Virus record (IMG/VR): IMGVR_UViG_2706794688_000008
Origin: a virus
Lineage: Duplodnaviria > Heunggongvirae > Uroviricota > Caudoviricetes
Strand: one strand, 5' to 3'
DNA: 4,295 bases
Under the pieces are notes generated by a model, which was not told the DNA's origin, made no database searches, and saw nothing but the letters and a program-made list of their open reading frames with translations. Of this stretch, positions 831 to 2,027 are shown piece by piece (position 1 is the stretch's first letter; each line of letters opens with the position of its first letter). A program made the position numbers and the translations under genes.

Positions 831-850
831 AGCCCCTCCGGAGAGGGGCT
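831..850 (-). terminator. Hairpin terminator (8-bp GC-rich stem, 4-nt loop), better suited to the minus strand
   Basis: AGCCCCTC (831-838), cgga, GAGGGGCT (843-850) form a perfect stem. On the minus strand the hairpin is followed by GTTTATATTGATTTT. On the plus strand no T-tract follows (ggagagtggc). It sits between the convergent plus ORF (stop at 795) and the minus cassette. Confidence 0.5.
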
Positions 851-1044
851 GGAGAGTGGCGCTATGTGCCATTGCATGGTGCCGGGTGCCTCCCGGTGAA
901 TTCAGTACCAGCACCTGAATCCGCGATTATCCCATATACCTACTCGCTGATTGCCCCTCCGCACAGGGGGATTCACCATGCCAGTTTCTTTTAACAAACT
1001 CCCCGCAAACCAGACAACAGTCAACCGCCTGAATTGTGAAGTAT

Positions 1045-1620
1045 TTAAAAATTNNNNNNNNNNNNNNNNNNNNNNNNNNNNNNNNNNNNNNNNNNNNNNN
1101 NNNNNNNNNNNNNNNNNNNNNNNNNNNNNNNNNNNNNNNNNNNNNNNNNNNNNNNNNNNNNNNNNNNNNNNNNNNNNNNNNNNNNNNNNNNNNNNNNNNN
1201 NNNNNNNNNNNNNNNNNNNNNNNNNNNNNNNNNNNNNNNNNNNNNNNNNNNNNNNNNNNNNNNNNNNNNNNNNNNNNNNNNNNNNNNNNNNNNNNNNNNN
1301 NNNNNNNNNNNNNNNNNNNNNNNNNNNTCCTGAACAAGAGCAAATAATTCTGAATTAGCAACCATGAACTCATCGCAAACCCTCTGTATAGCATCACTAT
1401 TCAGAATAATAACGTCTCTTCCCGAAAGACGATCAGGAGTACAGAACAAAACTGTCAAACGGCTGAAGGCCTTTGCTCGTGCTGCATTGACTATATCAAT
1501 ACGCTGCCTAAGGATGAAACACCCCGACGCCTCATCAATATTCACTCTACCCACACCATATGAATGATAAATATTTAATGCTGAAAAAACCATTAGACCG
1601 TATAACAAACACTCAATCAA
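1045..1620 (-). CDS. Hypothetical cargo protein (ORF2 of the cassette); the 3' end is uncertain because it lies in or beyond the mask
   Basis: Ninety-seven codons are visible without a stop (1620..1328) in AT-rich DNA: MIECLLYGLMVFSALNIYHSYGVGRVNIDEASGCFILRQRIDIVNAARAKAFSRLTVLFCTPDRLSGRDVIILNSDAIQRVCDEFMVANSELFALVQ. The start is either TTG at 1620, overlapping the upstream stop, or ATG at 1593. The end at 1045 assumes the frame stays open through 274 masked nt. Confidence 0.5.
   Translation of the reverse strand: MIECLLYGLMVFSALNIYHSYGVGRVNIDEASGCFILRQRIDIVNAARAKAFSRLTVLFCTPDRLSGRDVIILNSDAIQRVCDEFMVANSELFALVQXXXXXXXXXXXXXXXXXXXXXXXXXXXXXXXXXXXXXXXXXXXXXXXXXXXXXXXXXXXXXXXXXXXXXXXXXXXXXXXXXXXXXXXXXXXXNF
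1054..1327. other. N-run (274 nt) of masked or unsequenced bases
   Basis: Contiguous n characters. Any reading frame across this run is unknowable. Confidence 1.
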
Positions 1621-1950
1621 TACTTAACAGAACTTTTATTTTTGACAAACATAAAATATTTTCAACAATATCCTGAGCCAGGNNNNNNNNNNNNNNNNNN
1701 NNNNNNNNNNNNNNNNNNNNNNNNNNNNNNNNNNNNNNNNNNNNNNNNNNNNNNNNNNNNNNNNNNNNNNNNNNNNNNNNNNNNNNNNNNNNNNNNNNNN
1801 NNNNNNNNNNNNNNNNNNNNNNNNNNNNNNNNNNNNNNNNNNNNNNNNNNNNNNNNNNNNNNNNNNNNNNNNNNNNNNNNNNNNNNNNNNNNNNNNNNNN
1901 NNNNNNNNNNNNNNNNNNNNNNNNNNNNNNNNNNNNNNNNNNNNNNNNNN
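1613..1950 (-). CDS. Hypothetical small cargo protein (ORF1 of the cassette), almost entirely masked
   Basis: Only the last 22 codons are visible (LAQDIVENILCLSKIKVLLSID, TGA at 1615..1613). The stop overlaps the TTG of ORF2 within TTGATTGA. The start must lie downstream of the tRNA, which ends near 1951, so the protein is at most about 111 aa. The ORF-track start at 1999 is a TTG inside the tRNA. Confidence 0.3.
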
Positions 1951-1983
1951 NNNNNNNNNNNNNNNNNNNNNNNNNNNNNNNNN
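1683..1983. other. N-run (301 nt) of masked or unsequenced bases
   Basis: Contiguous n characters. Confidence 1.
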
Positions 1984-2027
1984 ATTGCTTAGAAGGCAAT
2001 TGCTCTGTCCGGCTGAGCTAACAACGC
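1951..2027 (-). tRNA. argO: tRNA-Arg (anticodon UCU); the 3' part is hidden in the N-run
   Basis: The minus strand reads GCGTTGT TA GCTC AGCCGGACA GAGC A ATTGC CTTCTAA GCAAT and then enters the mask. The acceptor 5' strand, D arm and a perfect anticodon stem with a CT-TCT-AA loop are visible (44 nt). The 3' end near 1951 is extrapolated from a 77-nt length. The gene name comes from the ileZ-argN-argO order in phage 933W. Confidence 0.8.

Follow-up and report, generated by a model that had tools for sequence, protein, structure and literature searches.

Downstream of the late promoter PR', lambdoid and Shiga toxin (Stx) phages carry a moron coding sequence, then small RNAs (sRNAs), and then a conserved open reading frame (ORF), an architecture that was described together with the moron site by Tree et al. 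2014 (PMC4104026; Juhala et al. 2000 cited there). The sRNA STnc100 is located 75 nucleotides (nt) downstream of stx2 (PMC12370729); it has been related to PasD, upstream of the esterase gene (bioRxiv 10.64898/2026.05.13.724894), and copies of it are expressed in enterohemorrhagic Escherichia coli, one of them confirmed by Northern blotting (PMC5331693). Here we describe the interval from 831 to 2027 of a 4,295-nt stretch of viral DNA (IMG/VR record IMGVR_UViG_2706794688_000008; the whole stretch that was analysed is called the window), which most probably (we put this at roughly 80%) is the late-operon cargo slot of a defective Stx-phage-like lambdoid prophage and holds, in minus-strand order, tRNA-Arg(UCU), an AT-rich leader, a 92-codon gene that we call ORF-A, a gene for a DUF3927 peptide, and the STnc100 gene.

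The locus shares with the published moron site the order of Q, PR' with its terminator tR', cargo coding sequence, sRNA gene(s), and conserved ORF (nanS-p/DUF1737), and likewise has a cargo that is variable and can be absent. It differs in that the cargo is ORF-A plus DUF3927 instead of a toxin, and in its convergent partner, which is iraL; an Rfam scan of the window gave no match to an AsxR/AgvB-type anti-sRNA convergent with STnc100. The locus is a real cargo slot with a common, catalogued cargo, and its components are all already known: ORF-A as phrog_2873, the peptide as PF13064, the sRNA as RF02076, and the neighbour as iraL, in a published architecture.

The window contains three runs of N, at 1054-1327 (274 nt; mask 1), 1683-1983 (301 nt; mask 2), and 3091-3348 (258 nt). 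The first two fall inside the interval and sum to 575 nt, in agreement with the sequence-only reading, which had put the masked part of the cassette at about 575 nt. ORFs that cross an N-run are open formally only, and all statements on masked bases rest on unmasked relatives. The features of the interval are as follows.

~1951-2027, minus strand: tRNA-Arg(UCU) gene; its visible part, 1984-2027, matches the first 44 nt, at the 5' end, of tRNA-Arg(tct) in the E. coli prophage L001 (4638-4714), and the 3' part is masked
1546-1682, minus strand: AT-rich leader of ORF-A, with TTGATTGA and one weak sigma-70-like match; 31% GC in an unmasked relative
1267-1545, minus strand: ORF-A (phrog_2873), an orphan gene of 92 codons that starts with GTG at 1545; its stop falls within mask 1, the end being placed from the relative L010
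~1076-1231, minus strand: gene for a DUF3927/TciB-like membrane peptide of 43 amino acids (aa); wholly masked in the window and placed from relatives
821-1010, minus strand: STnc100 sRNA gene (Rfam RF02076), a backbone element after the cargo slot; 132.4 bits against a gathering threshold of 47, model positions 1-206
830-851, minus strand: STnc100 terminator stem-loop; aligns to the terminal stem-loop and U-tail of the Rfam model

Equivalence with the Shiga toxin position

In the Stx2 phage Lyz12581Vzw (L022), stx2AB sits between homologues of the tRNA-Arg(UCU) side of the window (87% identity) and of window 825-1039, the latter matching the sequence just downstream of stx2B at 96% (825-903) and 81% (953-1039). 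Empty sites were found in three prophages (L015, L016, and L050), which join both flanks with 23 nt between them. Alignment of L010, the three empty sites, and L022 showed that the first shared flank consists of tRNA-Arg(UCU) plus ~12 to 15 nt, and that the second runs from approximately window 1051 downward, beginning ~40 nt upstream of STnc100. The distance between the flanks is 23 nt in the empty sites, 642 nt in L010 (ORF-A plus DUF3927), and 1362 nt in L022 (stx2AB), so that empty, Stx-filled, and ORF-A-filled sites together give the slot boundaries at nucleotide level. The earlier view that the interval is the same variable cargo ("moron") slot as stxAB is thus borne out by the shared flanks in the Stx2 phage and the empty sites.

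The same slot holds differing content in further prophages (L013, L023, L024, and L029), namely, a DUF3927-only variant, an AraC-type regulator together with an ORF-A homologue, or a TolA-like gene. Since the content differs among prophages and can be missing altogether, the interval is not an invariant backbone. Two of these fillings (L029 3969-4694; L024 1810-2238 and 2933-3658) comprise a regulator of the AraC family (241 aa) and a protein with a TolA C-terminal domain (142 aa) that precede a divergent ORF-A. A further observation concerns the sequence 3' of tRNA-Arg(UCU): the empty-slot and Stx2 prophages (L015 6698-6745 and L022 3375-3436) have a GC-rich hairpin with a T-run there (GGCTCGCTTTTGTGGGCC-TTTTTTTT), which is replaced in the ORF-A lineage by unrelated AT-rich sequence immediately adjoining the tRNA.

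The cargo shares its late-operon position with the Shiga toxin operon but has no sequence, family, or fold relation to it, the predicted fold of ORF-A being an alpha-hairpin, unlike the ribosome-inactivating A subunit and the oligonucleotide/oligosaccharide-binding fold of the B subunit. No toxin-family match was obtained in Pfam, NCBIfam, or PADLOC, in line with the earlier statement that the cargo is not Stx. Its description as AT-rich and unrecognisable was correct in part: the visible stretch 1328-1682 has a GC content of 37.7% and the leader one of 31%, but ORF-A (44%), DUF3927 (51%), and the segment 825-1051 (52%) are richer, and 821-1010 is recognised by Rfam as STnc100 and ~77 nt as a tRNA.

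STnc100 occupies the same position just downstream of stx2B in the Stx2 phage, after the empty slot (L015), and after other cargo (L029 and L013), as a backbone sRNA that follows the slot whatever its cargo. The window copy agrees with the STnc100/PasD family in its full-length match, its terminal hairpin and U-tail, and its location upstream of an esterase gene and downstream of the stx position, and differs in that gaps interrupt its alignment to the middle of the model. The hairpin at 831-850, which had been taken as the terminator that closes the segment, is real, with a 9-bp stem, a 4-nt loop, and a U-rich tail on the minus strand, but it is the intrinsic terminator of STnc100 and not a simple cassette end. 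In relatives, RefSeq lists a pseudogene ("hypothetical protein, missing C-terminus") at the counterpart of window 866-991 on the plus strand, antisense to STnc100, which is probably a spurious call.

All features from Q down to position 821 lie on the minus strand, the cargo being downstream of Q and of the PR'-proximal terminator. Because the cargo features are co-oriented with PR', Q-modified RNA polymerase should pass tR' and transcribe the tRNA, ORF-A, DUF3927, and STnc100 late in the cycle. Transcripts that start at a promoter within the cassette would, in the absence of Q, end at the STnc100 terminator.

ORF-A and the DUF3927 peptide

Three lineages of ORF-A, with ~60% amino acid identity, each have exactly 92 codons and begin with GTG-AAT-ATT-GAT. 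As they share this GTG start despite unrelated upstream sequences, ORF-A was delimited as 92 codons from 1545 to ~1267; in one of the lineages (L037/L014), an AGGAG Shine-Dalgarno sequence precedes the GTG by five bases. Pairwise ratios of nonsynonymous to synonymous substitution rates (dN/dS) are 0.23 to 0.26 at a dS of ~1, with no indels among the three lineages, and ORF-A is a real gene under purifying selection. The protein of L010, whose visible part is identical to that of the window, matches phrog_2873 with an E value of 3.8e-70 over 108 of 108 profile positions. The family is small, with only 20 members in a profile search of 1.84 billion representative proteins. Distant homologues with 22 to 39% identity retain the motifs AFS-x-LTV, PDR, AN-x-EL, and EYN-x-IA, and one of them (P0028; 39% identity) is likewise located downstream of a Q gene and a tRNA, indicating that the post-Q position is conserved across the family.

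Of 5426 complete E. coli genomes, 1184 carry the 601-nt segment with ORF-A and DUF3927 (at least 80% coverage and at least 98.8% identity), among them that of the sequence type 131 (ST131) strain EC958. Among 50,697 phage records, tblastn found ORF-A only in mEp460_ev081, and a survey of genome contigs for ORF-A relatives yielded a single locus in E. coli plus a contig that is likely a contaminant. The latter, a 2.7-kb contig of a metagenome-assembled genome labelled "Bacillota bacterium" (L052; JAEWMQ010000075.1), carries ORF-A, TciA, and TciB that are 100% identical to the E. coli prophage versions and is, almost certainly, contamination introduced by binning. ORF-A also appears in single records labelled Pseudomonas aeruginosa, Salmonella Agona, and Enterobacter hormaechei. 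In one Shigella sonnei genome (L011 5937-7199), an IS3-family insertion sequence (IS), the same as at the left end of the window, lies inside ORF-A with the 4 nt of window 1416-1419 on both sides, and ORF-A is therefore dispensable in that strain.

Every source labels ORF-A "hypothetical protein", and it has no match in Pfam, NCBIfam, or PADLOC. The structure prediction and fold search that had been proposed for the ORFs were run for ORF-A: the AlphaFold2 model (predicted local distance difference test score of 82) is an antiparallel two-helix hairpin with a conserved loop (helices 19-49 and 66-97 in the 108-aa form), the structure searches returned generic hairpins alone, and no function could be assigned. 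The protein is predicted to be a soluble, mildly acidic helical hairpin. Lacking a catalytic motif and having the fold of a generic hairpin, it probably acts by binding a partner protein; the data reach as far as a small protein-binding factor that would be expressed along with the late genes, and no farther.

Homology to TerB/TciA was rejected, with an hhalign probability of 0.07% and no match to PF05099. The same holds for an identity as a GapR-like (UPF0335/DUF2312) nucleoid-associated DNA-binding protein, which is very improbable. GapR chains are the top sequence matches of the family profile in the PDB (hmmsearch E values of 0.06 to 0.16), collinear over the N terminus, helix 1, and loop, and the two proteins are of similar size, but the profile-profile probability (hhalign) is just 18%, no member of the ORF-A family matches Pfam DUF2312, and GapR is missing from the top structural matches.

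It is possible, though doubtful, that ORF-A founds an uncharacterised family of ~92-aa helical-hairpin proteins that occurs solely at the post-Q cargo position in lambdoid prophages of enterobacteria and acts as a late effector binding a host or phage protein. If so, it could inhibit a defence or stress pathway or work together with a TerB/TciB envelope module, and it would constitute a widespread accessory factor (~22% of complete E. coli genomes, including ST131, plus S. sonnei) that is mostly missed by RefSeq. Its prevalence in ST131 and Shigella would be relevant if ORF-A had a phenotype, to which nothing here points.

All relatives belonging to the window lineage (L001, L002-L011, L019, L020, L051, and L055-L064) have a hydrophobic 43-aa DUF3927 ORF 35 nt after ORF-A. 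In relatives with 100%-identical flanks, it matches PF13064 with 95.6 bits and phrog_1470 ("TciB-like"); the window gene itself is masked, in a mask that is 24 nt longer. The peptide probably inserts in the inner membrane. In the version of L010 (5617-5748, minus strand), an N-terminal Cys/His-rich stretch (CFCEWHC) precedes the hydrophobic segment, and variants of 38 and 50 aa have a second hydrophobic segment in its place.

The Tci names stem from phage P1 (tciA-tciB-tciC), where the functions are predictions (PMC9603915). The locus resembles the P1 tci/TerB modules (phrog_632 and phrog_1470) in that DUF3927 matches the "TciB-like" PHROG and in that a sister lineage has ORF-A before TerB-domain and DUF3927 genes: in L037/L014, the order is methylase, ORF-A, a 141-aa TerB-domain protein (phrog_632), a 50-aa DUF3927 overlapping it by 4 nt, and holin. 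It differs in that the window lineage has no TerB gene and in that ORF-A is unrelated to TerB/TciA.

The two genes do not always co-occur, a question that the sequence-only reading had raised for its gene pair. The loci give INDEPENDENCE of two genes: ORF-A occurs without DUF3927/TciB in L012, L018, and 10 of 19 IMG/VR loci, and DUF3927 without ORF-A in L013, L021, and L023. Because each is found alone, the two appear to be independent modules and no obligate pair, which lends no support to a toxin-antitoxin or defence pair.

Masked stretches and competing explanations

S. sonnei chromosomes that were identified by exact-protein look-ups with the plus-strand ORF at 460-795, together with the 65-aa ORF and the DUF1737::IS fusion ORF, are 100% identical to window 1-1053 and 1328-1682, and the E. 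coli prophages L001, L019, L020, and L051 are ~99% identical over the same parts. The sequence-only reading had seen two translationally coupled minus-strand genes (1613-1999 and 1045-1620), overlapping in TTGATTGA, as a possible new toxin, toxin-antitoxin, abortive-infection, or lysogenic-conversion module. Both ORFs are formally open in the window, mask 2 is ~220 nt longer than in any relative and leaves room for unseen coding sequence, and the slot carries toxins in other phages. However, the TTG with which the upstream ORF opens lies within the tRNA-Arg(UCU) gene, so that the first codons of this ORF are tRNA sequence, and it is open across Ns only. In L010, the frame ending at 1613 can be read back for just 51 codons to a stop within the tRNA and has no ATG, GTG, or TTG giving at least 25 aa, and in the S. 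sonnei loci, which are 100% identical on the visible flanks, it is likewise stopped inside tRNA-Arg(UCU) and has no start codon giving at least 25 aa. The same is true of every relative that is free of masking, and both the upstream ORF and its stop/start overlap are an artefact of the masked bases. The downstream ORF is lengthened by Ns as well, its frame ending in relatives 61 nt into mask 1, and its conserved start is a GTG located 75 nt downstream of the TTG in TTGATTGA; this motif, being 75 nt upstream of the real start, couples no gene pair. Neither does anything else speak for a toxin, toxin-antitoxin, or abortive-infection system: PADLOC profiles gave no match to ORF-A, DUF3927, or TciA at an E value of ≤1, the partners are not obligate, and an IS disrupts ORF-A in S. 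sonnei L011. The coupled pair is thus already refuted for the relatives, and a module of this kind is highly improbable. The case illustrates how N-runs produce false long ORFs and false gene overlaps.

Several points weigh against the interpretation as a cargo slot carrying ORF-A, DUF3927, and STnc100. The counterparts of the three masks measure 250, 81, and 253 to 256 nt in all relatives, compared with 274, 301, and 258 nt in the window, so that each mask is longer than its counterpart in any relative, including those with flanks of 100% identity. The content of the masked bases is read from relatives, and with masks of this length the window could hold ~220 nt of extra sequence between the ORF-A leader and the tRNA, and it could be without DUF3927 or have another version of it. 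A promoter of the cassette's own was rejected, as six promoter-like matches compare with 5.1 expected in shuffled sequence, which is chance level. RefSeq, as annotated by the Prokaryotic Genome Annotation Pipeline (PGAP), lists DUF3927 alone under the cassette and has no annotation of ORF-A in the complete genomes inspected, leaving a conserved 92-codon gene under purifying selection unannotated at the Shiga toxin position; nor did any data turn up on expression of ORF-A or DUF3927.

The mask lengths could reflect a real extra insert that adds ~220 nt to mask 2 (and ~24 nt to mask 1) and brings in a feature such as a small gene, another tRNA, or a repeat. We consider this distinctly unlikely: scans for the exact spacing pattern showed that the 301-nt spacing is absent from viral, genome, and metagenome collections, and the relatives inspected all have 81 nt. 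BLAST of the window halves against complete E. coli genomes reached at best 98.7% and 97.1% identity and never matched the spacing of the window. In addition, the two halves differ in affiliation. Window 1-1682, including the IS junction, is 100% identical and specific to S. sonnei, as is the DUF1737::IS fusion ORF, whereas window 1984-4295 (tRNAs, methylase, and 65-aa ORF) is missing from those S. sonnei loci, which are without the methylase module, and is no more than ~97% identical to any complete E. coli genome. An S. sonnei-specific left half next to a non-specific right half is in keeping with a mosaic or with a scaffold whose gaps are estimates. The window is accordingly either a recombinant or mosaic prophage or an assembly chimera or scaffold with estimated gaps, and the N-runs are either not faithful in length, as in estimated scaffold gaps, or the source has inserts unseen elsewhere.

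It is also unlikely that ORF-A and DUF3927 are the decaying remnant of a larger ORF-A/TciA (TerB-like)/TciB module, functionless in a defective prophage. Such decay would agree with the L037/L014 arrangement directly upstream of the holin, from which the window lineage differs by having no TerB gene, with a prophage that is defective and whose nanS-p is cut by an IS, and with the missing PGAP call for ORF-A. Yet the exact length of ORF-A and a dN/dS of ~0.25 are kept across lineages, the cassette is at least 98.8% identical in the 1184 genomes, no frameshifts occur in the loci read, and the DUF3927 of the window lineage outscores the TciB version on Pfam (95.6 versus 51.3 bits).

Remaining features of the late operon and the left end

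Outside the cargo slot and its sRNA, the following features were assigned.

3877-4295, minus strand: 3' portion of Q, the antiterminator gene (Antiterm type), which leaves the window; 99.4% identity to the "antitermination protein" (RefSeq) of L050, and homologues with PF03589 Antiterm
3777-3796, minus strand: tR'-like intrinsic terminator downstream of PR'; 7-bp GC-rich stem, then TTTTAT, with the same element after Q in L010
3455-3652, minus strand: 65-aa ORF (phrog_331) with weak winged-helix matches; terminator-like hairpin at 3451-3468
2241-~3290, minus strand: N6/N4 DNA methyltransferase gene, with PF01555 in homologues; the part for the N terminus is masked (3091-3348), and the start is approximate
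2125-2200, minus strand: tRNA-Ile2 (CAU); labelled Met by ARAGORN, tRNA-Ile in the RefSeq homologue
2041-2117, minus strand: tRNA-Arg(UCG), from tRNA calling
427-795, plus strand: iraL (RssB anti-adaptor stabilising RpoS) with 5' untranslated region (UTR), the gene at 460-795; 162 bits on the IraM subfamily model of NCBIfam (cut-off 121)
73-214, minus strand: 5' end of a nanS-p-type esterase gene with a DUF1737 domain (PF08410); homology to intact 617- to 618-aa DUF1737-SASA genes from window 70
1-72, strand not given: end of an IS3-family element; 100% identity to the IS end copies in L009, L011, and L051, with the transposase gene adjoining in S. sonnei loci

The minus-strand order of Q, tR', tRNA-Ile(CAU), tRNA-Arg(UCG), tRNA-Arg(UCU), cargo, and DUF1737 ORF had been read correctly, except that the 65-aa ORF and the methylase gene between tR' and the tRNAs were omitted.

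At the left end, the IS3-family insertion cuts the esterase gene at ~72, just after the DUF1737 domain, which results in a 62-aa fusion ORF (26-214); with the nanS-p-type gene cut in this way, the downstream part of the prophage is defective.

A second and separate AT-rich moron, iraL (32% GC), is located between STnc100 and the esterase gene and runs toward the late transcript, its stop lying 36 nt from the STnc100 terminator hairpin. Deletion of iraL lowers RpoS in S. sonnei, and the gene is also present in CFT073 (Hryckowian et al. 2014, PMC4045071). The plus-strand gene at 460-795 corresponds to that iraL and has the same 5' UTR, window 427-458 matching the 5' end mapped for iraL mRNA in 31 of 32 nt, and a protein identical to the window IraL is encoded in S. 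sonnei. Unlike the cargo, it lies outside the interval 831-2027, on the opposite strand and as a moron of its own.

The 65-aa ORF at 3455-3652 is very widespread, the exact protein occurring in ~32,000 blocks of the collection.

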